This document shows, piece by piece, positions 1-34,235 of a stretch of DNA of 39,394 nt. How positions within the stretch are numbered: the first letter of the stretch is position 1; every line of letters begins with the position of its first letter. The notes beneath the pieces were generated by a model that did not search any database, was not told the DNA's origin, and worked only from the letters and a program-made list of their open reading frames with translations. The stretch comes from a virus (Duplodnaviria; Heunggongvirae; Uroviricota; Caudoviricetes). The translations under genes were made by a program, and so were the position numbers. The stretch is taken from positions 1-39,394 of IMG/VR virus record IMGVR_UViG_2541047825_000011; one strand, 5' to 3'.

Positions 1-516
1 ATGAAATTTAAAAAATGTCTTCTGCCTGTGGCAATGTTAGCGTCATTCACTCTGGCAGGATGCCAGTCAAATGCTGATGATCATGCTGCCGATGTTTATC
101 AAACCGATCAACTGAATACCAAACAAGAAACTAAAACCGTTAATATTATTTCCATTCTTCCCGCAAAAGTTGCCGTAGACAACGCCCAAAATAAACGGAA
201 CGCACAAGCCTTCGGCGCGCTTATTGGCGCTGTCGCTGGCGGTGTTATCGGCCACAACGTCGGGTCTGGCAGCAATTCCGGAACGACGGCAGGTGCAGTT
301 GGCGGCGGAGCTGTAGGCGCGGCAGCGGGTTCGATGGTGAATGATAAAACCTTAGTGGAAGGTGTTTCTTTAACATATAAGGAAGGCACCAAAGTGTATA
401 CCTCCACCCAGGTGGGTAAAGAGTGCCAGTTTACGACAGGTTTAGCCGTTGTTATTACCACGACGTATAACGAAACGCGTATTCAGCCAAATACCAAATG
501 TCCTGAAAAGAGCTAA
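1..516 (+). CDS. yfgH: Host outer-membrane lipoprotein with glycine-zipper region (YfgH-like)
   Basis: ATG at base 1, 171 aa; signal peptide ending in lipobox LAGC; Gly/Ala zipper GALIGAVAGGVIGHNVG...GGGAVGAAAG. Symbol assigned from remembered gene order yfgH-yfgI-guaA and matching protein length, not from residue-level recall. Confidence 0.55.
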   Translation: MKFKKCLLPVAMLASFTLAGCQSNADDHAADVYQTDQLNTKQETKTVNIISILPAKVAVDNAQNKRNAQAFGALIGAVAGGVIGHNVGSGSNSGTTAGAVGGGAVGAAAGSMVNDKTLVEGVSLTYKEGTKVYTSTQVGKECQFTTGLAVVITTTYNETRIQPNTKCPEKS

Positions 517-531
517 TAATCAGGAGGAGTC

Positions 532-1071
532 ATGAAGAAAGTTTTTCTTTGCGCCATCTTAGCCTCCTTAAGCTATCCGGCTATCGCCTCATCATTGCAG
601 GATCAACTCTCGGCTGTCGCAGAAGCGGAACAGCAAGGTAAAAATGAAGAGCAAAGGCAGCATGACGAATGGGTCGCGGAGCGCAACAGGGAAATCCAGC
701 AAGAGAAGCAACGTCGCGCAAACGCCCAGGCCGCGGCTAATAAAAGAGCGGCAACGGCAGCGGCGAATAAGAAAGCTCGTCAGGATAAACTGGACGCCGA
801 AGCCACTGCGGACAAAAAACGCGATCAAAGTTATGAAGATGAGCTACGCAGCTTAGAGATTCAGAAACAAAAACTGGCGCTGGCGAAAGAAGAAGCCCGC
901 GTCAAGCGCGAAAACGAATTTATCGATCAGGAACTGAAGCACAAAGCTGCGCAAACCGATGTGGTGCAATCTGAAGCTGACGCAAACAGAAATATGACTG
1001 AAGGCGGTCGCGATCTGATGAAAAGCGTGGGTAAAGCAGAAGAGAACAAATCGGACAGCTGGTTTAACTAA
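532..1071 (+). CDS. yfgI: Host secreted Lys/Glu/Ala-rich coiled-coil protein (YfgI-like)
   Basis: ATG 532 with AGGAGG just upstream; cleavable signal peptide; 179 aa; followed by an intrinsic terminator; symbol by synteny and length only. Confidence 0.5.
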   Translation: MKKVFLCAILASLSYPAIASSLQDQLSAVAEAEQQGKNEEQRQHDEWVAERNREIQQEKQRRANAQAAANKRAATAAANKKARQDKLDAEATADKKRDQSYEDELRSLEIQKQKLALAKEEARVKRENEFIDQELKHKAAQTDVVQSEADANRNMTEGGRDLMKSVGKAEENKSDSWFN

Positions 1072-6073: not shown

Positions 6074-6176
6074 GTTAAATCTCCAGATAGTCGCAGCACC
6101 CGTTGCGCCGCATATCTGGTTATTCTATTACCTGAAAAACCACATATGGATAGAAAGACTGTGAATACGAACAGAT

Positions 6177-6229: not shown

Positions 6230-6249
6230 TACTGTATAAATATACAGTT
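6230..6249 (+). promoter_or_regulatory. LexA (SOS) box
   Basis: TACTGTATAAATATACAGTT matches CTGT-N8-ACAG with an AT-rich spacer; about 20 bp upstream of the ATG at 6269. Confidence 0.7.
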
Positions 6250-6268
6250 ATTGCATGGAGAAGATAAG

Positions 6269-6526
6269 ATGCAGCAGTATCACTATCCACTGGAAGACGG
6301 ATTTACCGAAAGGATTCACACGCCGGGAGGCGTCAGGTCACTGGTGGAGGGATCGCACTTGATGAAATTACTCCGGGATCTCGATAAGGATGGATTTAAT
6401 GTCGATGGCCCACTTGCCGAACTGACTGCACTGATTAACTACGTCACCAGCTCACAGATGTCTATGCAGGATCTGCAAACACATCTCGACTATTGTGCCG
6501 AACAATTACGAAAACAAACCAGATAA
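6269..6526 (+). CDS. Small antirepressor-like protein, stand-alone homolog of the C-terminal domain of the adjacent BRO-N antirepressor
   Basis: ATG 6269 with GGAG 8 nt upstream (track ORF starts at TTG 6251); HTPGGVRSLVEGSHLMKLLRDLDKDGFNVDGPLAELT...QTHLDY aligns with HSPSGVLGLTENSLLMNLLNKLQEDGHDVSGAAAELT...QTHAEY of ORF 6840..7532. Confidence 0.65.
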   Translation: MQQYHYPLEDGFTERIHTPGGVRSLVEGSHLMKLLRDLDKDGFNVDGPLAELTALINYVTSSQMSMQDLQTHLDYCAEQLRKQTR

Positions 6527-6574: not shown

Positions 6575-6839
6575 TTACATCGCACTCCTCTTGTGCCATA
6601 GTAATCGGGCACTGGCAAAATCCAGTGCCGGGATTGGCGTCCCGAGTTACTACAGAGGCACATATGCCGCATAAGCGGTTTTTTTTATGTGTAAAGCGCA
6701 CCTATTCTATGGTGGGCTGTGTGGGGGCACCGAAAGGTGCGCCGGGTCCTTTGTAGCCGGTTACGCCAACCCTGCACAGTTCACCACCAACCGATTGGCG
6801 TCGGTAGTGGTGATTAACCTAACTACAAAGGTGATCGCC

Positions 6840-7532
6840 ATGAATACCAAACCTTCCATCTTTTCCTTTGAGTCATCCTGCCAGATCCGTATGTTCATGA
6901 TTGACGGAGAACCTTGGTTTGTCACCAAAGATGTGTGCAATGCTTTGAATATTGATGTTACACAAGCGAGAAAACTTGATAAAAAAGGCTGGAACAAAAA
7001 GGGGCTGTATTCAATACAGACCCCTGGTGGAATACAAGAACTATCCATCGTTTCAGAATCAGGTCTCTACATCCTTATTCTGCGTTGCAAAGAGGCAATG
7101 ACTGAGGGAACGAGAGCATTCAGATTTCTTGAATGGGTTACAGGTGAGGTTCTTCCTCAGATCCGCCGCACCGGAAGTTACATTAAAAACTCGCTCCCGC
7201 AGGAAGAACGCATAAAGATGGTTGCCGACCAGGTAGCCAACGCCACGGCGTCAGCAGTAATGCAGGCGATGAAGATAGAGAACAAAACCTACAGCGCCCC
7301 ACTGAAGCCCGGCTACCGTAGCCTGATTCATTCGCCGTCTGGTGTTCTCGGCCTGACGGAGAACTCACTGCTGATGAATCTGCTGAACAAGTTACAGGAA
7401 GACGGGCACGATGTATCGGGCGCGGCAGCGGAGCTGACCACCATGTTCTGCTACATCGTCGGTGTGAGCAAATGCCTGCGTGATATCCAGACGCACGCGG
7501 AGTACATCAACGACAAAGCAGGGTTCTTCTGA
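6840..7532 (+). CDS. Phage antirepressor with BRO-N type N-terminal domain
   Basis: Track ORF 6687..7532 trimmed to ATG 6840 (GGTGA upstream); N-terminal FESSCQIRMFMIDGEPWFVTKDVCNALNI ... ESGLYILILRCKEAMTEGTRAFRFLEWVTGEVLPQIR matches the Bro-N/antirepressor pattern. Confidence 0.8.
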   Translation: MNTKPSIFSFESSCQIRMFMIDGEPWFVTKDVCNALNIDVTQARKLDKKGWNKKGLYSIQTPGGIQELSIVSESGLYILILRCKEAMTEGTRAFRFLEWVTGEVLPQIRRTGSYIKNSLPQEERIKMVADQVANATASAVMQAMKIENKTYSAPLKPGYRSLIHSPSGVLGLTENSLLMNLLNKLQEDGHDVSGAAAELTTMFCYIVGVSKCLRDIQTHAEYINDKAGFF

Positions 7533-8463: not shown

Positions 8464-8490
8464 TTAAAAACAAGGCCGCGAAAGCGGCCT
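8464..8490 (-). terminator. Rho-independent terminator of the leftward virion operon
   Basis: AGGCCGC-gaaa-GCGGCCT hairpin with T-run on the minus strand, directly after the lipoprotein gene. Confidence 0.65.
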
Positions 8491-8502
8491 GTGACATGTC
8501 AC
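8491..8502. repeat. 12-bp perfect palindrome GTGACATGTCAC (copy 1 of 3)
   Basis: Exact copies also at 25648..25659 and 27912..27923; all intergenic. Confidence 0.8.
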
Positions 8503-8928: not shown

Positions 8929-11403
8929 TTATTGCGGAGTGACATCCTGAGGTCGCCACCAGTATGTCTGGTTAAACTCTTTCTTTGAACGTTGCTCCAT
9001 TTTACGCAAATAGCCTGGTGAAAAATACTCCTGCATCTGGTTAAAGATCATGTGATCGAGAGCCGCCTTTAAGTACCAGAGATTCGCACCTGGCATCAGA
9101 CCTTTCCCCAGCTTAACCAGATCACCACCAGTCTGCTCATTCTTCCCTTCCACAGCATTTAACGGTATGCCCTGAGCAATCTTCACTACGTCATCAACCA
9201 GACCAGCTACCGGGCCAAGCATCGACGCCAACGCGCCGCTTCCGTACCTGGTGTGGTCAGAGAAAAGAAAATCACCATACAACCCTGCACCACCACCTTT
9301 TAAAAATGCATTTATCCAGAATTTAACCATGTTGTCACCGGTCATTTCTTTTGGATTTCTCCCATTAATAAGATCAGTAATCTGCATGGAAAGAGCACCA
9401 AGCATGGTTGTGCTTGCTAAAAACGTTGCTATATATGCTGCACGCCCACCAGCAGACGGCATCCCCATAGCTCTATGCCAGTGACGCATAACTACCGAGA
9501 TAGGGAACGATTTAAACAGGAAAACACTTCTCGTTAATTCACCTTTCCATGTTCCACGCTGAAGACCAGACCCTACGAACATCTGTTCACGTGCGCCCGG
9601 TGTAATAACAGCCATATCAACTTCTTCAGTTACGGCACCGAGCAGTTTACGCATTGCCTCAAATTTCACGCGTTCAGGCTCACCAAGATGTTTAACTGCT
9701 GAATCAGGGATACGCATAATGCTTTCCGGTGTCAGCATCGTATTATTACCGTTCCCCCAGTCCTCCTGTTGCGCCAGCTTCCATACGCTCCAGTCTGTGT
9801 CAGTAATCCCTTTGCTTTTCAGGATACGAAAATCAGAGTCATCGAGGCTACGAAGGTCTGGTGTCCGTGACACTACTTCTCCCAGGCTTCCCATCATGGT
9901 TACGCCATAGGCGCGCTTGTGCGCATCTGACCATGCTGTAAGCCCACTGGCACGCATTACCGCCGTTGCCGCCCAACGAGACACAGACGGCCCCATATTA
10001 TCCATCGCCCAGCGGTTAACGCTGCCAAGTAGAGATTCCATCGCCAGGCCAGCGCGGCGCGCCCGCGCAAGCTCAGTACGGTTCGTTGGGTCCATAGCTT
10101 CAAGCTGGTTGCGAAATAACTGGTTCATTGGAAGGTTGGTAACCTTCGCAGACAGATACATGGTTCCAAGATCAGAGAACGATGACAGCAACGCGGATCC
10201 GAGTCTGCTGGCAACCAGCCAGTTGCGGATATTGTCAGACCATCGCGCGATGTGCGGATTCGCTACAGGCTGTGTTTTTCCGGAAATAAAGTTGTACAAG
10301 TTCTCTGTTTTGTTCGCCAGACGCTCGACGCTACCGGTTTTACTCGGGTTAGCTGTTGCCGTTTCTGCCTTAACCTGATCAAGAAGAGAGCGGAAAACAT
10401 GATCGGGGTTTGGGCCATATGTTTCCACCAGCGCAATATCTTTACTGATACCTTCCAGGTGACCGACCATGATTTCCCATAGAGAGCGATCGCCATAAAG
10501 TTGCTGATATTGCAGATAGGAATCTGCATCTTTGAAATGTATCTGTCGTGATGCATTACCACGGTTAGCACGTGCGCCGGAAATTCGCATTCCGGTATCA
10601 GTAAGCTTATTCAGCCCACCAGTAGCGATCGTGTTATAAGCCTCTCCAAGAAATTCAGACAACTCGGCATCGTTCATCAGTTGTCCATCGGCTCGGGTAT
10701 AATATTTGCGATCCAGCTTACCTATAACATCGCTAACCCACTTATCCTTTGATACCGCCCCAACCTTTTCCATAGAATGATGTTGAGGGATCCCCCAGTT
10801 TTCGAGATAGCCAATGTCACCACCAGCATCATTAAACCGGCGGCGCAGTAGCTCTGTCACTTCTCTCCACGCCTTAGCACCTTTTCTTGCTTTAGCATTG
10901 CCAGTATTTTGCCCTCGCATTTCATATACCAGATCACGCACGCCCGCTTCATCTTCAAACAGGCCAAAAAAGCGAGGATCAACTGCTTCAAATGCCTCCT
11001 GCAATTGACTCAATGCATAATCACGGGTGGCTTTTGTTCTGGATTCAACAGAGAGGAAATTAGATTTACCGTCTGCATTAAAAGCTATAGTACGGTTAAG
11101 AGCGCCAAGTTTCCCATCAGCCCCTTGATAGCTATTGATAAATTTATCCAATCTCTGACGCGCGGCTATAGTGAGAGCCACACGACGTTTCTTTAATGCC
11201 GCTTCTCGCTGTAATTCTTCAGATGCCAATTGTGCTGCTCGATATAGCCGCTCTGATTCGGAAAGTTGTCGCCACGACATCGGGTCATCACGAGCAATGG
11301 AGCGCATATTTCGATAAATGCGGTCTTCAATGTTCTGTATTTCTCGCGCCGTTAACATGCGCTGCGCCGCCTGCTGGACAGCTTGTATACATTCCTGTCT
11401 CAT
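8929..11403 (-). CDS. Internal virion (ejection) protein, large; T7 gp16-like position
   Basis: 824 aa; last large ORF of the virion operon; assignment by size and synteny only. Confidence 0.6.
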   Translation of the reverse strand: MRQECIQAVQQAAQRMLTAREIQNIEDRIYRNMRSIARDDPMSWRQLSESERLYRAAQLASEELQREAALKKRRVALTIAARQRLDKFINSYQGADGKLGALNRTIAFNADGKSNFLSVESRTKATRDYALSQLQEAFEAVDPRFFGLFEDEAGVRDLVYEMRGQNTGNAKARKGAKAWREVTELLRRRFNDAGGDIGYLENWGIPQHHSMEKVGAVSKDKWVSDVIGKLDRKYYTRADGQLMNDAELSEFLGEAYNTIATGGLNKLTDTGMRISGARANRGNASRQIHFKDADSYLQYQQLYGDRSLWEIMVGHLEGISKDIALVETYGPNPDHVFRSLLDQVKAETATANPSKTGSVERLANKTENLYNFISGKTQPVANPHIARWSDNIRNWLVASRLGSALLSSFSDLGTMYLSAKVTNLPMNQLFRNQLEAMDPTNRTELARARRAGLAMESLLGSVNRWAMDNMGPSVSRWAATAVMRASGLTAWSDAHKRAYGVTMMGSLGEVVSRTPDLRSLDDSDFRILKSKGITDTDWSVWKLAQQEDWGNGNNTMLTPESIMRIPDSAVKHLGEPERVKFEAMRKLLGAVTEEVDMAVITPGAREQMFVGSGLQRGTWKGELTRSVFLFKSFPISVVMRHWHRAMGMPSAGGRAAYIATFLASTTMLGALSMQITDLINGRNPKEMTGDNMVKFWINAFLKGGGAGLYGDFLFSDHTRYGSGALASMLGPVAGLVDDVVKIAQGIPLNAVEGKNEQTGGDLVKLGKGLMPGANLWYLKAALDHMIFNQMQEYFSPGYLRKMEQRSKKEFNQTYWWRPQDVTPQ

Positions 11404-22022: not shown

Positions 22023-22724
22023 TTATTTGCCATAGAGCACTTCGGCCGCACTACGCTGGCCTTCATTACCACCGGTGACCATGCCATCTTCAGACATCGC
22101 CTTTCCGATTTTCACGAACGTTTTGACCAGATCAGGGTGATTACCCAGCCCGGTGGTGTTCAGATATTCTTTGAGTTCAGGTGTCCCGAACTGGTCAAGC
22201 GCACGCTGTGCGGCGCTAAGGTTAGAAATCAACTTGTCGCCACCGATTTCTTTGTCAGCTTTTACATCCGCAGCCCACTGCTCGGTTGTTTTCTGCCAGG
22301 CTTCTGCCTGGCGCTGCTGAACACCTGCCAGAATCTTCGGATAAGCATCAACCAGCTTTTGCGCTTGCTCGTTGGTCAGGTTAAGTTCTCGCGCCACCGG
22401 CTCGAATTCCTTCAACGCTTCTGTATCCAGCTCTACGCCTTCGGCAGCCTGAAACTCGTACTTCTCAGGCGCACCCTCTGGTTTATCGCCGTCCTTTTTT
22501 TCATCCTGCTTATCGTTTTCAGGCTTTTTGTCATCAGCAGGTTTATCGCCATCAGCAACAGGTTGTGGCTTATCACCTTCCTGTTGTGATGGATCACCAA
22601 CTGGAGCAGGGTTATCACCTGCAGGCGCTGACGGTTCTGACGCAGCCGGAGCTGCTCCACCATCGACTGGTTGCTCATTGCAAAGACGGCGATACAGCAA
22701 ACGCTCAAATAAATTCATGATCAC
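22023..22724 (-). CDS. Scaffolding protein
   Basis: 233 aa; strongly acidic/Lys-rich low-complexity N-half (DGDKPADDKKPENDKQDEKKDGDKPEG), helical C-half; upstream of the capsid gene. Confidence 0.7.
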   Translation of the reverse strand: MIMNLFERLLYRRLCNEQPVDGGAAPAASEPSAPAGDNPAPVGDPSQQEGDKPQPVADGDKPADDKKPENDKQDEKKDGDKPEGAPEKYEFQAAEGVELDTEALKEFEPVARELNLTNEQAQKLVDAYPKILAGVQQRQAEAWQKTTEQWAADVKADKEIGGDKLISNLSAAQRALDQFGTPELKEYLNTTGLGNHPDLVKTFVKIGKAMSEDGMVTGGNEGQRSAAEVLYGK

Positions 22725-23017
22725 TCCTGTTCACTGGCCTCTTTGGCCATCTTCAAATACTGTTCAGGGCAATGCGCCATAACGCGCTGAAACAGTTCCA
22801 GCGCCAGATTGCGTTGCCCCTCATTAAATGCCATTGCCATAGCATCCATCGGAGAGATAGCGGAAAACACACGGCCTTTCTCCAGCACCGACCAGACAAC
22901 GCGACGCCCCTGTTCACTGCTCATGACAAAGCGAATGTCATCAATTTCACGCTGTGCCATGTCACGTTGCTTACGGGCGTTTTCTTCTTTCAGTTGATCG
23001 TCTTCGTAATCTGTCAT
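22721..23017 (-). CDS. Hypothetical small head-module protein
   Basis: 98 aa; overlaps the portal stop and scaffold start. Confidence 0.5.
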   Translation of the reverse strand: MTDYEDDQLKEENARKQRDMAQREIDDIRFVMSSEQGRRVVWSVLEKGRVFSAISPMDAMAMAFNEGQRNLALELFQRVMAHCPEQYLKMAKEASEQE

Positions 23018-24693
23018 TGTGATTGCCCACCCTGACCACTAACTGCATTCGCCATAGCTGACAAAACACTCGGATCCGAAGTTTTAGCTTCGCTTAGCGT
23101 CTTGGCACCCTGTGCCGCCGCCATCCCCATCGCCATCATTTGTTGCTGCTGTTGTTGCTGTGCCCGTTGCTGGCGAGCCTGCTCAACCTGTTCCTGCGGA
23201 ACAATGACGGTTGGAGACACTCCGGACATATCAGCGAATGCATCGATCGCCTGATCAACGTTGAGTTTGTCGAGAGCTTCTGGTTTCGCTTGCGCAAGTT
23301 GACCAATGAAGTTGACCGTAGACGCCAGACTGGACAGGCCGATAGACTTCTGCGCCTGAGCCATGACGGAAATGTATTCGACCTTCAGGGGCATACCTTC
23401 CATCGCGTCAGGCGGTGGCGGCAGCATGTTTTTACGCACCATCATCGAGAAAGCGCGGTCAATGAGAGGATTAAGACATTCGTCGTTCAGACGCTCCAGA
23501 ACCGGCCCCAACATCAGAAGTTTTTCTTCTTTCATTTCGATCACCGCTTCAACAGGCATCGAGCGGGTATTGATGTTCTGCAACATCATGAACAGATCGA
23601 CAAAGTAGGCGCTGTTAATGATTTGACGAGTGTCCTGAATGTCTGCCACCAAATCTGCTGTACTGGGGTTAACCAGATAAGCAGGTCTGAAACCATCCTG
23701 ACCAGTAATCTGATCGATATACGTGATGTCGCCAGGAAGAAGGGAGGCACGCTGATTCTTGAGGGAAGTCGGAGCAACCATCGGCGGATTGGTGGCTTTA
23801 TCAATCAACTGCGACTTGCGCTTCTGGAGAAGCTGCAATGCCTTAACAGGTCCAAGCGCCAGCATACCCGGGCATGATGATCCATAAACATCTTCGCCGT
23901 TAACTTCCCAGCGCGGAGCCATAATTGGAAACTCATCGAATCCGGACTCACGCAACAACTTGTCGTTATCGCCACCAACCTCGTAATAAACCGATTTGAA
24001 TGGCTTGTTCTTGCTATCCAGCTTCGATGTATCGCGGTCAATGTTCGGGTAAACCGAATGCATCACTTCGATCCACTTCTCGTAGGTGCCGCTTTCCCAC
24101 ATGCTTTTTACGGATTCGCTGACGTTATTTAGCCCGAACTCCTGAACAAGCTGACGAACAGTCATAGAGAACTTGCGAAAACAGGTGTCAACACTGCCAC
24201 GAGGTGAGTTAGCCAGGTAGTAACTGCCTATCGGGAATGGCATTGTGCGAATGATGTCCTCGTCATCCTCCAGCACTGCCATTGCACCAGTGCTGTATGT
24301 GCCGAGGCTTCCGTATAACTGCGGCAGCGACTGATAGAGATTCGACTTATTGAACATATCGTTCATGCGGTTCTGCACCGCCTCAAGCCACAACTTAACA
24401 GGGCCATAATCCATCATTTCAGGATCTGGCGTAGCCAGGCGAAACCACGGACGCGCGGGGCTTGTGATGCCTGACATCATGCCGCTGGCGAGAGTGCGCG
24501 CCGCCATAGTCCCGGTCGAATCAATAATGCGTGTATTGCGTCGATCGTTACGGTTGACCTCAGAAGTCAGAAAGCGGGAACCACGCGGGTTGATGTAATC
24601 ACTCAACTCGCGCCAGTGCGGCTCGAACGACTGACGCTCGCTTTCAAGTTGTGCGAACTGTTTGTTCAATCGCTCTTTAGTTGTTTCCGCCAT
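23014..24693 (-). CDS. Portal protein
   Basis: 559 aa; Gln/Ala-rich C-terminal tail; position between terminase and scaffold. Confidence 0.8.
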   Translation of the reverse strand: MAETTKERLNKQFAQLESERQSFEPHWRELSDYINPRGSRFLTSEVNRNDRRNTRIIDSTGTMAARTLASGMMSGITSPARPWFRLATPDPEMMDYGPVKLWLEAVQNRMNDMFNKSNLYQSLPQLYGSLGTYSTGAMAVLEDDEDIIRTMPFPIGSYYLANSPRGSVDTCFRKFSMTVRQLVQEFGLNNVSESVKSMWESGTYEKWIEVMHSVYPNIDRDTSKLDSKNKPFKSVYYEVGGDNDKLLRESGFDEFPIMAPRWEVNGEDVYGSSCPGMLALGPVKALQLLQKRKSQLIDKATNPPMVAPTSLKNQRASLLPGDITYIDQITGQDGFRPAYLVNPSTADLVADIQDTRQIINSAYFVDLFMMLQNINTRSMPVEAVIEMKEEKLLMLGPVLERLNDECLNPLIDRAFSMMVRKNMLPPPPDAMEGMPLKVEYISVMAQAQKSIGLSSLASTVNFIGQLAQAKPEALDKLNVDQAIDAFADMSGVSPTVIVPQEQVEQARQQRAQQQQQQQMMAMGMAAAQGAKTLSEAKTSDPSVLSAMANAVSGQGGQSQ

Positions 24694-24914: not shown

Positions 24915-24982
24915 ATCAATGACTCCGTACGCAATTAAATTATTACCAATTTAACCACATATGATTTATTTATCGTAGGCAG

Positions 24983-25340: not shown

Positions 25341-25417
25341 GTGGCATTAGCTCAGTTGGACAGAGCAACCGCCTTCTAAGCGGTTGGTCGCAGGTTCGAA
25401 TCCTGCATGCCACGCCA
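25341..25417 (+). tRNA. tRNA-Arg (anticodon UCU)
   Basis: 77 nt cloverleaf by hand: acceptor GTGGCAT/ATGCCAC, D-arm GCTC..GAGC, anticodon stem ACCGC/GCGGT with loop CTTCTAA, T-arm GCAGG-TTCGAAT-CCTGC, encoded CCA; differs from host argU in acceptor and anticodon stems. Confidence 0.9.
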
Positions 25418-25460
25418 GAATCACGCCTAAGGACCGTGATGCCAGAAGTTCCAGGGGCTT

Positions 25461-25502
25461 GGCGGTGATGGTTTCCCTTGAAGGACTATCACCGCCCTTT
25501 TT
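25461..25502 (+). terminator. Hairpin with T-run downstream of tRNA
   Basis: GGCGGTGAT ... ATCACCGCC 9-bp stem with long loop, then CTTTTT. Confidence 0.45.
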
Positions 25503-25580
25503 ACAGCAGGACGCCATTGCGATGACTTCATGCTGTAAACCCGTACAGCCACGGAAGGCAAAACTCATTGCTTCCAGTTC

Positions 25581-25604
25581 GCCCGGTTCGCCGGGCATTT
25601 TTTT
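25581..25604 (+). terminator. Rho-independent terminator
   Basis: GCCCGG-ttcg-CCGGGC followed by ATTTTTTT. Confidence 0.75.
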
Positions 25605-25647
25605 AAGGTGTGAATCATGAAATACGAATTCGATGGATTTTGATGTC

Positions 25648-25659
25648 GTGACATGTCAC
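25648..25659. repeat. 12-bp perfect palindrome GTGACATGTCAC (copy 2 of 3)
   Basis: About 75 bp beyond the terL stop, at the right edge of the tRNA island. Confidence 0.8.
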
Positions 25660-25663
25660 AAAC

Positions 25664-25690
25664 AGCCAGCCGATGAGCTGGCTTTGTTTT
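25664..25690 (+). terminator. Hairpin plus T-run
   Basis: AGCCAGC-cgatga-GCTGGCT followed by TTGTTTT. Confidence 0.5.
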
Positions 25691-25733: not shown

Positions 25734-27209
25734 TTAAGCATAGGGATCGTAATCTGTGATGGCCTTGCCTTGCTGGTTCTGCTGCCCGGGAATTCGCAGA
25801 CGCTTCGACACAGGGAACGCAAACGTCAGCAGTAGCGCATCGCCTTTACCAGGCGAACGCCCAAGCCGCTCCTTGATATCTTCCTTCGGTTCGATAACGA
25901 TTTTACCGTCCACTCGAACTTTGTACTCTGCCGCCGACAGATCGTCCGCTGTTTCCTGGTCATCCAGCATCCCGCCCAGCCTCAGCCATGTCTTGCATGA
26001 GTTGAACATCTCCCCACGCTTGTTGAGCATCTGCTGGTCAGTAGACGCGCCACCGAACGGAACAAGTTGCCATGTGCGCCCCCAACCGTCACCGATTGAC
26101 TTCAGACCGGTACCGTAACCAAAGTCGATGAACACTGCGTCAGCCTGATACAGGTCTTCAAAGTCAGCAATACGCTTCGCCATAATCAGATCGTCGGTAG
26201 TCTTGTTGCCAGTCCACAGCACCTTACTGTGTAGCCCCTGCCGCAGGTATATCACCGCGTCATCAACGCCTGAATATGCCGGGTCAACACCGATTATCAC
26301 CGGAGCATGCGCCACCTGCGCAGCGGTTACCACCCGTTTCATTGCCTCATCAGTAAGACCGGTAGGGATAAACTGCAATTCAGATGCATCAGGGAATATG
26401 CCGCGCACACGGATTTTAACGAAGTCGCTGTCTTCCCCGTAGTCATCAACCCATTTCTGCAACTGCTGTTTGTTAGTGCCTTCCACCGTCCGGCTGTCAA
26501 TCTGCGCAGTTTTCCAGCGGTGTTTATATTTGCGGAAACATTCACGGAATCGCCCGGTATTACGCGTCGGGTTTCCGAACGCCACCCAGATAATCTCAGT
26601 GTCTTCGTCCGTTAGCGCACCTTCGGCAACTTCCCACACCAGATCCGCAATGTTCGACGCTTCATCGAATACCACGATGATGCGTTTGCGCTCGTTGTGT
26701 AGTCCGGCGAATGCCTCAGTGTTGTGCTCAGACCAGGGGATTGCGTCAGCTCGCCACCGCTTGTCGTGCCCAGGATCATTGCTGTACATCGCGGTAGCGG
26801 TACAGGTAAACCAGTCTTTCGTGATAGCAAGGTTCGACCACTTGATAATTTCCGGCCAGGTCTTCGTTCGTAGCTGGTTGTCGGTGTTGGCGGTCACCAC
26901 GACCTTACAATCCTCGCAAGTGGACATGCCCCAGTTGATCAGCATTGAGATGAATGCGGATTTACCAATACCGTGACCAGAAGCGCGTGCCAGCATAAGC
27001 GGCTGATAGCGCGTCTCTGGATTCTGCAGGTAATCACGTATCTCTCGGAACGCATCAGCCTGCCACTGACGTGGGCCGGTGGCATGTGCCAGTTCAGTCC
27101 CCTCTTCCCCCCACGGGAACGCATAGAGGGCATAGCCAAGCGGATCGTGAGTGAACCCTGCAATATCCTCGATCAACTGCTCTTCAGGAGATAACGCTGT
27201 ATCTGTCAC
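25734..27209 (-). CDS. Terminase large subunit
   Basis: 491 aa; P-loop-like SGHGIGKS, Walker B-like IIVVFDEASN, C-terminal nuclease-like region; overlaps terS stop. Confidence 0.9.
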   Translation of the reverse strand: MTDTALSPEEQLIEDIAGFTHDPLGYALYAFPWGEEGTELAHATGPRQWQADAFREIRDYLQNPETRYQPLMLARASGHGIGKSAFISMLINWGMSTCEDCKVVVTANTDNQLRTKTWPEIIKWSNLAITKDWFTCTATAMYSNDPGHDKRWRADAIPWSEHNTEAFAGLHNERKRIIVVFDEASNIADLVWEVAEGALTDEDTEIIWVAFGNPTRNTGRFRECFRKYKHRWKTAQIDSRTVEGTNKQQLQKWVDDYGEDSDFVKIRVRGIFPDASELQFIPTGLTDEAMKRVVTAAQVAHAPVIIGVDPAYSGVDDAVIYLRQGLHSKVLWTGNKTTDDLIMAKRIADFEDLYQADAVFIDFGYGTGLKSIGDGWGRTWQLVPFGGASTDQQMLNKRGEMFNSCKTWLRLGGMLDDQETADDLSAAEYKVRVDGKIVIEPKEDIKERLGRSPGKGDALLLTFAFPVSKRLRIPGQQNQQGKAITDYDPYA

Positions 27210-27802
27210 TGATTACCATCCTGACGTTCTTTGAGTCGCTTCCTGGCTGCCGCTATGCGATCAGCAATTGTCACATTCACATTAACATCCAGGCGTTCTT
27301 TGAACGCGTTGACGTCGACGTGCTTACCAATCAGTTCGAGGTTCTTCACCTTGTCAGGCCATTTAATTTTTTTGAGGATTGTCTCTATCGAATCCTCGTT
27401 CATGTTCATGATGGTCGATGACAGATCAAAGCCACTAAGCGTAGTGCGCCAGATTTTCGGCCACTCGCGGATTGGCTTAAGGCTCCCATCGTCGTTGAGG
27501 ATGTCGATCACGTCCATCTGGTCGATCTCCACTAGGCGCATGAGAACGTAATCAGCACTGACGCGCATTCGTTTGTTGCGCTCCTCCATCAACTCGGCAA
27601 TCCGTTTTTGAATGCGTTCATCGCGCATCATGACACTGGCTTTAACTGCCGCTGTATTTGGGGAGAATCCTGCGTTAATCGCTGCCTGAGTCTGGTTTTC
27701 AGGCGTTTTGATGTATGACTGGCAATAAGCCTCCTGCATTGCTGTTAGTGGCTTAAATTGCGTTGATTTGCGTTTATAGGTTTTAGGTTCAGCAGGCATC
27801 AT
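27206..27802 (-). CDS. Terminase small subunit
   Basis: Track ORF 27206..27898 trimmed to the ATG pair at 27802/27799 because a hairpin with T-run and direct repeats occupy 27803..27898. Confidence 0.6.
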   Translation of the reverse strand: MMPAEPKTYKRKSTQFKPLTAMQEAYCQSYIKTPENQTQAAINAGFSPNTAAVKASVMMRDERIQKRIAELMEERNKRMRVSADYVLMRLVEIDQMDVIDILNDDGSLKPIREWPKIWRTTLSGFDLSSTIMNMNEDSIETILKKIKWPDKVKNLELIGKHVDVNAFKERLDVNVNVTIADRIAAARKRLKERQDGNQ

Positions 27803-27809
27803 AACCACC

Positions 27810-27838
27810 GTGGTAATAGTTACCGTTGTGGTAATAGT
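27810..27838. repeat. Two 11-bp direct repeats GTGGTAATAGT just upstream of terS
   Basis: Copies at 27810..27820 and 27828..27838; each carries a TTACC half-site on the coding strand. Confidence 0.55.
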
Positions 27839-27844
27839 ACCATG

Positions 27845-27871
27845 CAAAATAAAGCCGCCATAGTTGGCGGC
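27845..27871 (-). terminator. Terminator-like hairpin in the terS leader
   Basis: GCCGCCA-tagt-TGGCGGC; T-rich run follows on the minus strand. Confidence 0.45.
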
Positions 27872-27911
27872 AGTATTCAAAACCATCAAATTCATCATGC
27901 ATAATCTACTC

Positions 27912-27923
27912 GTGACATGTCAC
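27912..27923. repeat. 12-bp perfect palindrome GTGACATGTCAC (copy 3 of 3)
   Basis: Overlaps the stop codon of gene 27920..28261, upstream of terS. Confidence 0.8.
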
Positions 27924-28261
27924 ACTATTAATTTCGTTTCATGCCAGCCTTTAGTCACCCAGCATTGTGAGTCACCATTACACGGACATGAATTAACTGG
28001 AACTCTCTCGCCGCACTTACCGCAACGTTTTCTAATGATCGATTTTATACGCCCGCGCACGCGTGCATCATCCTGGCGGATCAGTAACGCTATATACTCA
28101 CAAAATTCGTAAGGCGCACGCCCGGGGCGACGCGCAGCACAGTTACGCTCAAGCATTTCAATTTCCTGAGCATCAAGCACAATTTCCAGCTTACGCACAC
28201 CAGATGCAGCTTGTCTGGCTCTCTGAGCGGCTTTGCGCTCTGCTGCTGATTTAGCCATCAA
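27920..28261 (-). CDS. Cys-rich small basic protein (candidate zinc-ribbon regulator)
   Basis: 113 aa; basic helical N-terminus; C-terminal CGKCGERVPVNSCPCNGDSQC cluster; last gene before the packaging genes. Confidence 0.55.
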   Translation of the reverse strand: MMAKSAAERKAAQRARQAASGVRKLEIVLDAQEIEMLERNCAARRPGRAPYEFCEYIALLIRQDDARVRGRIKSIIRKRCGKCGERVPVNSCPCNGDSQCWVTKGWHETKLIV

Positions 28262-28532
28262 TATTTACCTTTATCGCGAACACCTTTACCGGTTTATCAC
28301 CGAAGTGGGGGTGTGTGATTGTCTTGATTTCATATCCGTCATACGGGACGTCAATTCTGCGACTGGAGTCGTCGCGCTTCGGATATCCCCTTGTGATAAT
28401 CAGGCGGTCATACTTACGGTTAACGAGGCGCTTATTCCAGTAGTCATTACACAAGCGATACTCTTCCGTTTTCTCTCCACGAATCATGGCATCGAAGTAT
28501 TCACCTTTGACGGCAAGTTGCAGGTTAGCCAC
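28251..28532 (-). CDS. Hypothetical nin-region protein
   Basis: 93 aa; coupled to flanking ORFs. Confidence 0.55.
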   Translation of the reverse strand: MANLQLAVKGEYFDAMIRGEKTEEYRLCNDYWNKRLVNRKYDRLIITRGYPKRDDSSRRIDVPYDGYEIKTITHPHFGDKPVKVFAIKVNIDG

Positions 28533-29151
28533 GGTTAACCTCCTGCGGCGGTTCCGGTAGCGGCATCCAGTGGGTTACTTTCGATGCCGGTTCTTCCACA
28601 TCGTCAGTAACTGCCCACCATTTGTTTTTCGACCAATCGTAATACCCTTCGAAGGTATCGCACTCAGTCCAGCCGTAAGACTTCCCCCAACACCAAACAT
28701 ACTGTTTATCGTTCGGCATTCGCTCACTACAGCTTATCCAACCATCCGGAGTTACCGGAGAGTTGCCCGACAGCTCGTTCAACTTATAAGTCTGGCTTAC
28801 AGGTTCGGCACCATTAAGCATGGAGGCGCGGCAGGCGTTCCAGCCTTCATCAAAGCCGACTATGCCATTATTTAAAGACGGACGAGCATCTGGCACCATC
28901 GGCACTGGCTTGGCTATATATAGCGGCTGAACATACCAGCCCTTTGATAACCAACTGTCAGCAATGTTTTTACTCCTCGTTATTGCCGGAATACCTAAGC
29001 CATTTTCTGAATGCAGCCATGCCACCGGCTCCTCTTCTAGCGATGCCAGAGCAATTTCATAAGCACGGCGCTCAATATTGTCTCGCACGTCCAGGCTGCC
29101 TATGCGTTCTTTGATTTCTTTAATCATTTCTTTGTCGGTTAAAGTTGTCAT
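28525..29151 (-). CDS. Phage protein with DUF551-like C-terminal domain
   Basis: 208 aa; Trp-rich C-terminus VWCWGKSYGWTECDTFEGYYDWSKNKWW...HWMPLPEPP. Confidence 0.6.
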   Translation of the reverse strand: MTTLTDKEMIKEIKERIGSLDVRDNIERRAYEIALASLEEEPVAWLHSENGLGIPAITRSKNIADSWLSKGWYVQPLYIAKPVPMVPDARPSLNNGIVGFDEGWNACRASMLNGAEPVSQTYKLNELSGNSPVTPDGWISCSERMPNDKQYVWCWGKSYGWTECDTFEGYYDWSKNKWWAVTDDVEEPASKVTHWMPLPEPPQEVNRG

Positions 29152-30205: not shown

Positions 30206-30828
30206 TCCAGCAGGGCGTCCGTCGCTTCTTTCACCGTAACGATGTCGCCATCGTCCAGCCCGACAACCGTCGCGTTCTTAACGAACACCGAGCAAAGGTC
30301 ATTAAACGCCTGCGCCCGCACTTCAGCCAGGCATTTGCGAAACTCGGAAACGTACTGTTCGACGCTCATTCCCCAGCTAAGTGGACATTCATTGAATGTT
30401 TCGCCTTCGTGCTCTTCATCAGGTAGCTCTTTGGTAAAGAACTCACGTTCAATGGCGTGGAGTGTGTCAGCAAAACGACGTAAGTTACTCAAACCTGTCG
30501 TAATGGAGAATTCAGGAGCATCACATCCGACGCCCATCTGCTGATAAACGGCGGTTTTGAAGGCCTTCAGCCCCGCATTCTCCGCCGCCAACGCCGAAAA
30601 CTTCTCGTGTGCCAACTTAACAGCCGCATCAGCCTGCTTAATTGACTCAATCGCTTTCTGCTGGTCTTCGGCCAGCGCATTAGCACGCACCAGTTGCACT
30701 TCCAGTTGCGTTGCCAAATCGCTGATCAGCTTTGCCACACTGCGCATATCAACGGCACCACATTCTGCTTTCAGTTCCGAAGCCATCTCATGCCCGGCGG
30801 CAACTAACCCTTTGATATTACTTTCCAT
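30169..30828 (-). CDS. Hypothetical coiled-coil protein
   Basis: 219 aa, helical composition. Confidence 0.55.
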   Translation of the reverse strand: MESNIKGLVAAGHEMASELKAECGAVDMRSVAKLISDLATQLEVQLVRANALAEDQQKAIESIKQADAAVKLAHEKFSALAAENAGLKAFKTAVYQQMGVGCDAPEFSITTGLSNLRRFADTLHAIEREFFTKELPDEEHEGETFNECPLSWGMSVEQYVSEFRKCLAEVRAQAFNDLCSVFVKNATVVGLDDGDIVTVKEATDALLDCAEQLRKGGNQ

Positions 30829-31254: not shown

Positions 31255-31287
31255 AAAAACCACATAAGACATGAAATCAATAGAGTT

Positions 31288-33220: not shown

Positions 33221-33243
33221 GAAAAGACCGCCGGATGGCGGTC
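33221..33243 (-). terminator. Rho-independent terminator downstream of cro (tR1-like)
   Basis: GACCGCC-atcc-GGCGGTC followed by TTTTC on the minus strand. Confidence 0.65.
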
Positions 33244-33265
33244 TACAGAGGGTTGTGGCTGGATA

Positions 33266-33496: not shown

Positions 33497-33650
33497 AGCT
33501 ATTGCCTGATATTTATTTCAGATAATAAATATTCACCCATAAGGTAACAAAAATCAAGGATAGTTACCTGTGGGGTGCATTTACCTGTTGGGTAATATTG
33601 CTTTAAATTGAATCATCTACTGATTCATATATGAGGCGATTTTCCAGAAA
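33497..33650. promoter_or_regulatory. Immunity-region operator/promoter cluster
   Basis: Three ACC-N5-GGT sites (33532..33548, 33563..33579, 33579..33597) plus a 24-bp AT-rich palindrome ATATTTATT-tcagat-AATAAATAT (33509..33532) between the divergent cro and repressor starts. Confidence 0.7.
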
Positions 33651-34235
33651 ATGAAAAGTATCCAGGACGTCCGCAGGCAAAATCTCAACGACTTGATCGA
33701 CCGTGAATTCAATGGTGTTCAGACGCGGATGGCTGAAAAACTTGGAACTCAGGCAAATCTGGTAAACCGCTGGGCTCTTGGCAAGAAGGTTATCGGCGAC
33801 CAGGTTGCACGAAAAATTGAAGCTGCCGCCAATAAACCCCGTAACTGGCTTGATATCGATCGCTCGCTTTCTCAGGAAGGTTTTCAGCCTGTCGGCCCAA
33901 GCGACATTGGCCAGCTGGCGGCTCACAACCTGGAACGCTGGATGAGCGAAAGCCGCGACCTTTCAACACAGGGAAAACTTCACCGCGCATCCGGCGTAGC
34001 CCAGGTGACAATCAGCCGCCTGTTAAACAATGAGGTCAGCGTTTCCATTTCCACCCTGGAGAATGTTGCATCCGCATTCGGGCGTCACGGCTATGAATTA
34101 CTGATTCACCCGCACGACCCTGCGACCATCAACTATGATCGCTCGCGCTACGCATTGTTACCCGAAACCGAGAAAGCAAAGATCGAAAGTTACATTGAAT
34201 TTGTCATCAACCAGAACGAAAAAAACAAACAATAA
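33651..34235 (+). CDS. Prophage repressor (cI-like) with two HTH motifs and no recognisable autocleavage module
   Basis: 194 aa; two XRE-type HTH segments (QTRMAEKLGTQANLVNRWALG and KLHRASGVAQVTISRLLNN); no Ala-Gly or Cys-Gly dipeptide and no S24-like C-terminal region. Confidence 0.75.
   Translation: MKSIQDVRRQNLNDLIDREFNGVQTRMAEKLGTQANLVNRWALGKKVIGDQVARKIEAAANKPRNWLDIDRSLSQEGFQPVGPSDIGQLAAHNLERWMSESRDLSTQGKLHRASGVAQVTISRLLNNEVSVSISTLENVASAFGRHGYELLIHPHDPATINYDRSRYALLPETEKAKIESYIEFVINQNEKNKQ

Follow-up and report, generated by a model that had tools for sequence, protein, structure and literature searches.

The region immediately upstream of the packaging genes carries three separate signals: an apparent site for the 113-residue Cys-rich protein encoded next to it, a terminator, and two operators of the prophage-repressor type. 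We give a probability of roughly 40% to the reading that this region is a composite transcription boundary with a gate mechanism, set between the early-right (nin-like) operon and terS-terL of an epsilon15-like (Uetakevirus) phage. The window, i.e. the whole stretch of 39,394 nucleotides analysed, had initially been annotated here with a structured leader serving as a candidate late-gene control region and composed of a palindrome, a hairpin with a T-run and a pair of 11-bp direct repeats. All of these elements were found where that annotation placed them, on the minus strand like the genes, and the palindrome, the hairpin and the operator motif each exceed chance. The 130-nt leader is structured as claimed (fold z = -3.4), and as a control region it is real and conserved. 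What found no support were the kinship of the 113-aa protein to Ogr/Delta or TraR/DksA and the role of the repeats in packaging. The anatomy of the region, the site statistics, the linkage between gene and site and the fold class come from sequence and comparison; coordinates are given in Table 1.

Table 1. Features of the boundary region, its flanking genes and related sites elsewhere in the window (a point in the strand column: no strand assigned).
Feature	Position	Strand	Remarks
Gene of the 112/113-aa Cys-rich protein	27920..28258	-	epsilon15 gp49 / N15 gp46 family, phrog_536
Palindrome 1, GTGACATGTCAC, putative 113-aa-protein site	27912..27923	.	perfect 12 bp; overlaps the TGA stop of the 113-aa gene
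Variable spacer, deletion remnant of cargo (moron) slot	27872..27911	-	3' end common with 70-aa gene
Intrinsic terminator t1	27846..27871	-	7-bp G+C-rich stem, 4-nt loop, T-run; unidirectional
Operator a, GTTACC-GTTGT-GGTAAT, repressor-type (putative)	27819..27835	.	includes one 11-mer
Operator b, ATAACC-ACCGT-GGTAAT, repressor-type (putative)	27801..27817	.	spans terS Shine-Dalgarno and first ATG
terS, small terminase subunit, Terminase_2	27206..27802	-	Pfam E 1e-29; phrog_51
terL, large terminase subunit	25734..27209	-	phrog_2, phrog_5902; annotated large terminase in relatives
Hairpin after terL	25664..25683	.	T-run strong on plus strand, weak on minus
Palindrome 2	25648..25659	.	just past terL hairpin; 4 nt upstream of hairpin on plus strand
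Palindrome 3	8491..8502	.	3 nt past stop of the structural operon's last gene; 2 nt upstream of t3
Terminator t3	8465..8490	-	AGGCCGC-TTTC-GCGGCCT, then TGTTTTT
Prophage repressor gene (SPC32H Rep homologue), presumed operator binder	33651..34235	+	PDB 5D50, E 4e-42

The earlier call of a likely terS agrees with its Terminase_2 match. Its start is the ATG at 27802 or 27799. A 230-aa reading frame from 27898, annotated as terS in phiV10 and PAT1, was rejected because its extension lacks conservation, with a 1-nt indel in the commonest close relatives and mostly non-synonymous differences from PAT1.

The final gene of the early-right operon encodes the 113-aa protein, a member of a family of approximately 1000 sequence clusters that has neither a Pfam family nor an assigned function. 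The profile search proposed in the initial annotation gave nothing significant, whether against Pfam (no family at E <= 0.01), NCBIfam or the PDB (sequence and profile searches), and five diverse family members matched no Pfam family at E <= 10. Matches to phycobilisome-linker and S27ae families (E 0.1-2) were dismissed as chance, and PF10723 is present in some Vibrio homologues. For the TraR/DksA family (zf-dskA_traR) and for the Q families no match to the 113-aa protein was obtained in Pfam or NCBIfam. P2 Ogr and P4 Delta are likewise small four-cysteine phage proteins with DNA sites of dyad symmetry, but the 113-aa protein has no Pfam match and its cysteines, invariant in the family (C80, C83, C92 and C100), are spaced CxxC-x8-C-x7-C, whereas those of Ogr follow C-x2-C-x22-C-x4-C. 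A first structure model based on a shallow alignment (pLDDT 56) was set aside, and a usable one (AF2, pLDDT 83.5) was obtained after adding Vibrio homologues. This model predicts a ribbon-helix-helix-like (RHH-like) N-terminal domain, with the beta-alpha-alpha fold of the Arc/MetJ/CopG proteins, followed by a module formed by the four cysteines; Foldseek searches of PDB and BFVD returned no informative match. A literature search on N15 gp46 yielded nothing useful. On account of its linkage to a DNA site (see below), the RHH-like model and the four invariant cysteines, it is very probable that the 113-aa protein is a regulator that binds specific DNA sequences.

The 12-bp palindrome appears to be the cognate site of this protein. 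GTGACATGTCAC occurs in three exact copies in 39.4 kb (0.035 expected for GTGAC-NN-GTCAC, Poisson P 7e-6), and epsilon15 also has three, at the same positions in the gene order, the counterpart of palindrome 3 overlapping the gp18 stop upstream of an annotated terminator. Among 58 diverse loci encoding a homologue, from P2-like, N15-like and epsilon15-like phages amongst others, 46 have an exact site at -3 to +25 nt of the homologue's stop; a site near this stop is also found in N15, in a Yersinia P2-like phage and in Chlobot. N15 and Vibrio phage K233 each contain three exact sites (0.03-0.05 expected, P ~1e-5 each). Across four phage groups the number of palindromes per genome is about three, and zero were found in P2 and lambda, which both lack the gene. 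Klebsiella phage ST512-KPC3phi13.3 was considered as a natural knockout and rejected, the gene being present. Coding constraint does not account for the palindrome, because just one of its bases is sense-coding. Moreover, it is kept regardless of whether a terminator with operators, the ribosome-binding site of a cargo gene or a LexA-box promoter lies downstream. A palindromic site linked to the gene fits an RHH dimer, the model itself being of a monomer only. A near-palindrome at 22954 was examined as a fourth copy and judged coincidental, as it is part of a coding sequence, with which it changes in relatives. Literature searches with the palindrome sequences retrieved no relevant paper. The pair of protein and site is found again in unrelated phage types and is seemingly undescribed.

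A terminator-like hairpin is located within 10 nt of the palindrome in 33% of unique site contexts compared with 1% of random positions, a count in which the contexts are phylogenetically non-independent and the random controls mainly coding positions. Palindromes 2 and 3 lie at convergent gene junctions, 2-4 nt upstream of terminator hairpins. Each minus-strand unit (DUF1064-gp49, terS-terL, and gp3 to the 137-aa gene) has an operator at its start and a palindrome at its end.

An architectural or recombinational role, in which the protein bridges the three sites into loops or the sites serve as joints for cargo exchange, with no direct effect on transcription, is quite unlikely. The count of about three palindromes in each genome, seen in four phage groups, would suit it, as would the variable cargo genes adjoining all three palindromes, and DNA bridging was once proposed for MatP-matS of E. 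coli. However, conserved regulatory islands are expected to turn into mosaic joints anyway, the 113-aa protein has no nuclease or recombinase domain, and a role in transcription is suggested by how closely the sites are associated with terminators, ribosome-binding sites and a -35 element. Sequence comparison does not support homology to MatP (hhalign probability 0.1%, BLASTP E 12), the sites here are all 12 bp with a 2-nt centre, 1 bp shorter between half-sites than the 13-bp matS (GTGAC-N3-GTCAC), and the four-helix bundle and coiled coil of MatP are absent, the 113-aa protein having a zinc module instead.

Gene and site linkage also bears on the proposal that the palindrome or the repeats form a pac region recognised by TerS, which we regard as highly unlikely. 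SPP1-type phages have their pac where terS starts, at its 5' end, and the TerS of the window belongs to Terminase_2, the family of SPP1/SF6-type small terminases (the epsilon15 note cites SF6 TerS). Furthermore, two palindromes bracket terS-terL, and in Vibrio phage K233 terS is preceded by a copy at a distance of 20 nt. Yet the palindrome tracks the 113-aa gene rather than terS: P2-like and N15-like hosts of the pair have unrelated terminases and cos ends, and in Chlobot the palindrome follows a homologue next to int/xis. Genome ends might be suspected from the start of the phiV10 and epsilon15 records in this place, but the start is an annotation convention, the phiV10 record ending exactly at the gp55 stop codon. 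The repeats, in turn, belong to a family of 12 operators at promoter regions and around the repressor gene, as described below.

Downstream of palindrome 1, the t1 hairpin GCCGCCA-ACTA-TGGCGGC (27871..27854) is followed by TTTATTTT (27853..27846); with 7 pairs, 6 of them G-C, and a T-run on the transcribed strand it has the predicted make-up of an intrinsic terminator. In six lineages 97.6% of cells are paired, compared with 26-64% when the partner columns are slid; one pair is compensatory (G-C to A-U), and the hairpin keeps its place in diverged lineages. Its counterpart in the epsilon15 record is annotated as a rho-independent terminator. Comparison with relatives indicates that t1 closes a cargo-gene slot, which is emptied in the window: relatives have in it either a 70-aa gene (L058) or, behind a LexA-box promoter, a gene that is UmuD-like or of 85 aa, and in some of them 6-7 nt separate the palindrome from the downstream -35 of the LexA-controlled cargo promoter. 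Palindrome 2 adjoins a cargo slot as well, occupied by tRNA-Arg in the window; the diverse cargo genes of relatives end 4 nt away from it.

The two exact 11-mers described as direct repeats exist, but each is a piece of a 17-bp inverted repeat, ATTACC-N5-GGTAAT (core TTACC-N5-GGTAA), of which the window contains 12 sites (0.99 expected). The 11-mer reads ACTATTACCAC on the minus and GTGGTAATAGT on the plus strand, and its two copies occupy 27828-27838 and 27810-27820; allowing up to one mismatch it has 3 matches (0.39 expected). The homologue of operator a in the epsilon15 record is annotated 'protein_bind: repressor', the counterpart of operator b is degenerate there (2 mismatches), and the epsilon15 genome contains 18 operator-type sites (~1 expected). 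In the window, the repeated symmetric site clusters around the repressor gene and divergent promoters, with operators at 33580, 34292 and 34354 flanking the Rep homologue gene beside the best promoter-like matches. A secondary source (PMC9638917) describes SPC32H Rep as a tetramer that binds palindromic sites. The Rep homologue thus presumably binds the 17-bp operators, and the repeats are better regarded as copies of this genome-wide operator, which also flanks the repressor gene, than as pac or TerS-binding elements. The arrangement resembles the 'stoperators' of mycobacteriophage L5, where many copies of the gp71 repressor site are scattered over both early and late regions. Some precede late genes directly, and there the bound repressor is believed to stop polymerase during elongation; a like action would be expected of the two operators that cover the terS start. 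The L5 sites, however, are asymmetric 13-mers, while the window has symmetric 17-bp inverted repeats, most of which are located where a unit starts, and its repressor is of the tetrameric SPC32H type.

How terS is transcribed was addressed by simple sigma-70 scans of the leader, which gave nothing above chance (3 promoter-like matches, 2.5 expected). GTGACA-18-CATGAT (9/12), the only promoter-like match in the variable spacer, is at chance level and not conserved, and the only candidate for a terS promoter, TTGCRT-17-GGTAAY, keeps its spacing in five lineages, yet the critical A at -11 is missing. By these sequence criteria there is no credible promoter between t1 and terS; therefore, terminase transcription most likely comes from upstream and crosses the gate. 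The remaining late operons have a different shared upstream motif. That GTGACA of the palindrome instead forms the -35 of a promoter for a short terminated leader RNA or sRNA is most improbable. Such a promoter could be read in the window (GTGACA-18-CATGAT) and in epsilon15 (GTGACA-17-TAAATT), and the stretch 27931..27847 matches Rfam rseX below threshold; the number of promoter-like matches is that of chance, though, the -10-like hexamer lies in the deletion remnant and is absent from L127, L128, L160 and the cargo-bearing relatives, and the rseX match, the sole one found in Rfam, scores far too low (29.6 bits against a gathering score of 50 bits, E 0.15). The setting recalls RinA, LtrC and ArpU of Gram-positive phages, small regulators encoded directly upstream of terS that act on the terS upstream region. 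Those proteins activate a terS promoter and are of sigma-like or winged-helix type. In the window, by contrast, an RHH-like fold is predicted and a promoter was not detected, and in P2-like phages and N15 the family is also encoded well away from terS.

Along the direction of transcription, the proposed gate would consist of the 12-bp site, the emptied cargo slot, the terminator of this slot and the two Rep-type operators over the terS ribosome-binding site. In the lysogen, Rep on the two operators would block entry of polymerase into terS. During lytic growth, the 113-aa protein, taken as a dimeric RHH DNA binder with a C-terminal four-Cys zinc module, would bind GTGACATGTCAC at all three copies, including the two with which the terS-terL unit and the structural operon end, and would be a boundary factor acting on elongating RNA polymerase. 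We prefer a negative polarity, with the protein as a roadblock: it would strengthen the ends of operons, restrict read-through into cargo and convergent genes, and throttle the expression of terminase and of itself.

Two directions of action have to be weighed. That the protein closes the boundary rather than opens it is weakly favoured, because sites 2 and 3 lie at convergent junctions beside terminators and the family coexists with Q or with an ogr-position gene: in N15 the Q gene (gp40) is separate from the homologue gp46, and the Yersinia P2-like phage that carries a homologue also has an ogr-position gene. RHH proteins are mostly repressors, and small phage RHH proteins on short symmetric operators are known from Arc and Mnt of P22 immI. 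The 113-aa protein differs from these in an additional N-terminal basic helix and C-terminal four-Cys module, in the position of its operator, which lies where its own gene ends and near terminators rather than at its own promoter, and in the lack of sequence similarity. Against closing, the essential terS-terL would then need leakage through t1 or an unseen promoter, the usual place of positive late regulators is directly upstream of the first late genes, and zinc modules are common in RNA-polymerase-binding factors; a single RHH dimer on one 12-bp site may also be too weak to stop an elongating polymerase.

The opposite direction, with the palindrome-bound protein modifying or contacting polymerase such that t1 is read through and terminase is made once the protein has accumulated, is rather unlikely, even though several observations argue for it. 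The gene is the last before terS, its site is followed by a strong terminator, and no recognisable promoter precedes the essential terS; this order of site, terminator and terS is kept in diverged lineages, including L127 with a different terS. In at least three independent contexts a terminator hairpin follows the palindrome after 2-5 nt, a spacing that would let a factor anchored on the DNA contact polymerase at its release point, and the protein has a four-Cys module. In agreement with the initial annotation, no Q-like protein is recognisable among the scanned neighbours or in the epsilon15 annotation. The arrangement is also similar to the lambda Q-qut/QBE-tR' system, in which a regulator gene ends the early-right operon and is followed directly by its DNA site, a terminator and the late genes. 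However, the 113-aa protein has no relation to Q proteins by sequence or Pfam, sequence inspection revealed neither a conserved promoter nor a recognisable pause element at its linked site, and here a perfect palindrome is present three times, twice at convergent operon ends, with the lysis genes not downstream. Antitermination is moreover difficult to reconcile with sites 2 and 3: the strong terminator at site 2 faces the opposite strand, which would result in antisense transcription into terL, and read-through at site 3 would run antisense into the antirepressor cluster. Owing to cargo insertions, the distance between site and t1 varies from 22 to ~300 nt, and the coexistence of the family with Q (N15) and with an ogr-position gene (P2-like phage) also speaks against an opening function.

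More broadly, the epsilon15 gp49 / N15 gp46 family could represent an unrecognised class of regulators, a proposal that we consider tentative and somewhat unlikely. Its members would combine a portable RHH-plus-zinc gene with a GTGAC-N2-GTCAC operator over the stop, and act on elongating RNA polymerase at operon boundaries rather than at promoters. The protein would then be either an assisted terminator or insulator, or a DNA-tethered antiterminator positioned 2-5 bp upstream of terminator hairpins, and through its spread the same module would have come to be shared by podoviruses, P2-like myoviruses, N15-like telomere phages and Vibrio siphoviruses.

Together, these data resolve a vaguely defined structured leader into three defined, testable elements, and pair a widespread protein family of no assigned function with a precise 12-bp DNA site. 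The dispersed operators, two of them over the terS start, suggest that the prophage repressor directly silences late operons in this phage group. Epsilon15-like phages, which include the E. coli O157 typing phages and common prophages of STEC and Salmonella, have no Q, N or Ogr homologue, and the finding bears on how packaging and late genes are timed in them. If the 113-aa protein acts on polymerase at terminators or operon ends, it would add to the few known phage controls of read-through and would explain how cargo genes are insulated from the lytic operons.

The window is the genome of an epsilon15-like (Uetakevirus) phage. Its 27100-28600 region, which is common as an E. coli prophage, shares 97% identity with E. 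coli O157 typing phages 9 and 10, with phiV10, TL-2011b and epsilon15 as further relatives. With the late genes on the minus strand, features read downward in coordinates. The palindrome, the hairpin with T-run and the two 11-mers that the initial annotation placed before terS are all present in the sequence, and the 130-nt leader folded better than 200 of 200 shuffles (z -3.4). Upstream, an ASCH-domain gene (28251-28532, minus) shares 11 nt with the start of the 113-aa gene. A match to Rfam rseX (Hfq-binding sRNA) extending from palindrome to terminator (27847-27931, minus; 29.6 bits versus a gathering score of 50 bits, E 0.15) is probably driven by the terminator.

Coordinates of features in the window and of cargo genes in relatives.
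Feature	Position	Strand	Detail
113-aa gene	28261..27920	minus	first in order 113-aa gene, leader, terS, terL
Palindrome 1, GTGACATGTCAC	27912-27923		overlaps TGA stop of 113-aa gene
Hairpin GCCGCCA-ACTA-TGGCGGC	27871..27854	minus	then TTTATTTT
Two exact 11-mers	27828-27838 and 27810-27820
terS	27802..27206	minus	Pfam Terminase_2, E 1e-29
terL	27209..25734	minus	last in that order
Operator copies (12)	6177, 6557, 7604, 7705, 25004, 27801, 27819, 31237, 31299, 33580, 34292, 34354
Motif CATATGTGGTT	24953-24963, 6138-6148, 31258-31268	minus
LexA box TACTGTATAAATATACAGTT	6230-6249		1 mismatch to pattern; before two antirepressor-like genes
Antirepressor-like genes	6251-6526 and 6687-7532	plus	phrog_450/1760 and phrog_130 Ant
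Cargo between palindrome and hairpin	10351-10575 of relative L058		70-aa gene, phrog_1541
Cargo between palindrome and hairpin	relatives, including 10348-10672 of L130		LexA-box promoter with 85-aa (phrog_2100) or UmuD-like gene

The earlier terS call was upheld by the Terminase_2 match, and its start after the leader by the lack of conservation of an extension from 27898. A 230-aa ORF running from that position through the leader was rejected as a gene: the commonest close relatives carry a 1-nt insertion within it, and 8 of its 10 codon differences from Salmonella phage PAT1 are non-synonymous. The terS start is therefore 27802 or 27799. By the same comparison, the long terS (223-224 aa) of the public records phiV10 (41..715) and PAT1 (23156..23827) probably has wrong start sites, which fall inside the leader (window 27803-27898) in this non-conserved extension.

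Because the homologous stretch is annotated as a repressor-binding site in the epsilon15 reference record, we searched for ATTACC-N5-GGTAAT and found 12 sites in the window versus 0.99 expected, and 18 in epsilon15. Each 11-mer forms the left part of one of two neighbouring operators, 27819-27835 and 27801-27817, the latter spanning the Shine-Dalgarno sequence and start codon of terS. Three more copies flank the gene of a 194-aa protein (33651-34235) matching the solved SPC32H Rep repressor (E 4e-42), and the others precede the gp3/portal operon, the tailspike gene, the antirepressor cluster and the DUF1064 gene; almost all transcription units in the window have an operator at their start. The 11-mers belong to a genome-wide operator family, and the pac-site or TerS-binding role first considered is unlikely. 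From these matches we infer that the Rep homologue binds the 17-bp operators. Rep is, according to a secondary source, a tetramer binding palindromic sites (PMC9638917), and the operator distribution suggests that the repressor directly silences the late operons, possibly via looping given the tetrameric state of SPC32H Rep.

Ahead of the gp3/portal operon, the tailspike gene and the DUF1064 gene, a repressor operator is followed at 29-41 nt by the motif CATATGTGGTT, with a GGTAATA(A/G)AAT-like sequence a further 5-6 nt on. A matching arrangement precedes gp3, gp20, gp23 and the ruvC-like gene of epsilon15, and may represent a shared activator-dependent promoter class; the motif is absent from the terS leader. 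The LexA box and the antirepressor genes look like an SOS-inducible antirepressor module similar to that described for SPC32H. This cluster converges on the third palindrome copy.

The window contains three exact copies of GTGACATGTCAC (27912, 25648 and 8491; sites 1 to 3), and epsilon15 has three at matching gene-order positions: where gp49 ends, shortly behind terL, and where the last gene of the structural operon ends beside a terminator. In an unbiased count of inverted repeats, only the palindrome and the operator were recurrent. A one-mismatch version, GTGCCATGTCAC, at 22954-22965 within a 98-aa ORF (23017..22721) has one or two mismatches in relatives and is probably a coding coincidence. 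By tblastn, homologues of the 113-aa protein were found in 151 phage records, including N15 (gp46), phiKO2 (gp45), Yersinia P2-like phages and Vibrio phages. The stop codon overlaps GTGACTGGTCAC in N15 gene 46 and GTGACGCGTCAC in the Yersinia phage homologue. Among 58 diverse loci fetched with the family profile, 46 carry an exact GTGAC-NN-GTCAC starting -3 to +25 nt from the stop, despite differing C-terminal residues; of the palindrome, a single base is sense-coding, and the site is kept with the gene regardless of the downstream sequence. N15 and Vibrio phage K233 have three exact copies each (0.03-0.05 expected, P about 1e-5), and there is no copy in P2 or lambda, neither of which has the gene. 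Together these comparisons argue strongly for recognition of the palindrome by the 113-aa protein. Besides the gene 46 copy, N15 carries one copy within repA (33237-33248) and one between gene 33 and an annotated terminator (28550-28561), the latter oriented relative to transcription as at gene 46. In P2, the DUF3850 gene orf91 (30316-30645) follows gene A, the position of the 113-aa homologue in the Yersinia P2-like phage.

Searches with the 113-aa protein gave no Pfam, NCBIfam or PDB sequence match except a weak YbfE hit (E 0.041). The zinc-ribbon kinship with Ogr/Delta or TraR/DksA proposed initially is therefore not supported, and membership of the Q family was likewise rejected. At 90% identity the family falls into about 1000 clusters, every one of them labelled hypothetical. 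Its invariant residues include C80, C83, C92 and C100, together with R9, K10, Q13 and R14, which lie in a basic helix at the N terminus. Three Vibrio homologues have a precomputed PF10723 hit, and adding Vibrio homologues to the alignment gave an AlphaFold model with a pLDDT of 83.5. In kind, the protein and its palindrome would be a ribbon-helix-helix regulator and its symmetric operator. MatP recognises a site with identical half-sites spaced one base pair wider; no sequence similarity to MatP was detected in the 113-aa protein.

The hairpin and T-run occupy the same place in six lineages (97.6% of cells paired, one pair changing from G-C to A-U), one of which, L127, has an unrelated terS N-terminus. 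We read the leader hairpin as the intrinsic terminator that closes a cargo slot. In relatives, the interval from palindrome 1 to this hairpin (window 27872-27911) is a hotspot for cargo genes; in a Yersinia P2-like phage, the module is followed by a LexA box and a small DinI-like gene. The 40-nt spacer of the window keeps the 3' end of the 70-aa gene and is thus a deletion remnant. Its only promoter-like match (GTGACA-18-CATGAT) is at chance level and not conserved, and no credible sigma-70 promoter was found between terminator and terS.

Site 2 lies at a convergent junction, on the plus strand 4 nt upstream of the post-terL hairpin, whose strong T-run faces the plus strand; in relatives, diverse cargo genes end 4 nt from this site. 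The adjoining region (25341-25660), a cargo slot between terL and the gp3 operon, holds a plus-strand tRNA-Arg (anticodon TCT) and, after it, three terminator-like hairpins on the same strand (25461, 25581, 25664); epsilon15 has a reverse-oriented gene (p50) there. Site 3 is 2 nt upstream of the terminator ending the structural operon and faces the LexA-controlled antirepressor cluster. Every minus-strand unit in the window has a repressor operator at its start and a palindrome at its end. Elsewhere the site is 9-21 nt upstream of the next start codon (N15 gene 47, Vibrio terS, cargo genes) or, in other relatives, 6-7 nt upstream of a -35 element. A terminator-like hairpin lies within 10 nt in 33% of 151 unique contexts versus 1% of random positions, the contexts being related and the controls mostly coding. 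From these contexts we read the palindromes as candidate boundary elements that would act on polymerase during elongation, with either of two polarities. Antitermination by the 113-aa protein best explains a strong terminator before the essential terS without visible promoter, as well as a gene located exactly where late switches usually sit; we consider it the less likely of the two. We weakly favour, with a probability of about 0.4, a negative polarity in which the protein bound at the palindromes would be a roadblock or insulator. Ribbon-helix-helix proteins are mostly repressors, two sites are placed where antitermination would harm, the family coexists with Q and with an ogr-position gene, and a different motif, CATATGTGGTT, is common to the upstream regions of the other late operons.

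The epsilon15 record already carries annotations for the terminator and the repressor sites. For the pairing of gene and palindrome no description was found, searches with the palindrome sequences gave no relevant paper, and no curated model covers the 113-aa family. What is unusual is a putative operator overlapping the stop codon of its own gene, its placement at operon ends and terminators, and the spread of the gene-palindrome pair over four unrelated phage architectures.
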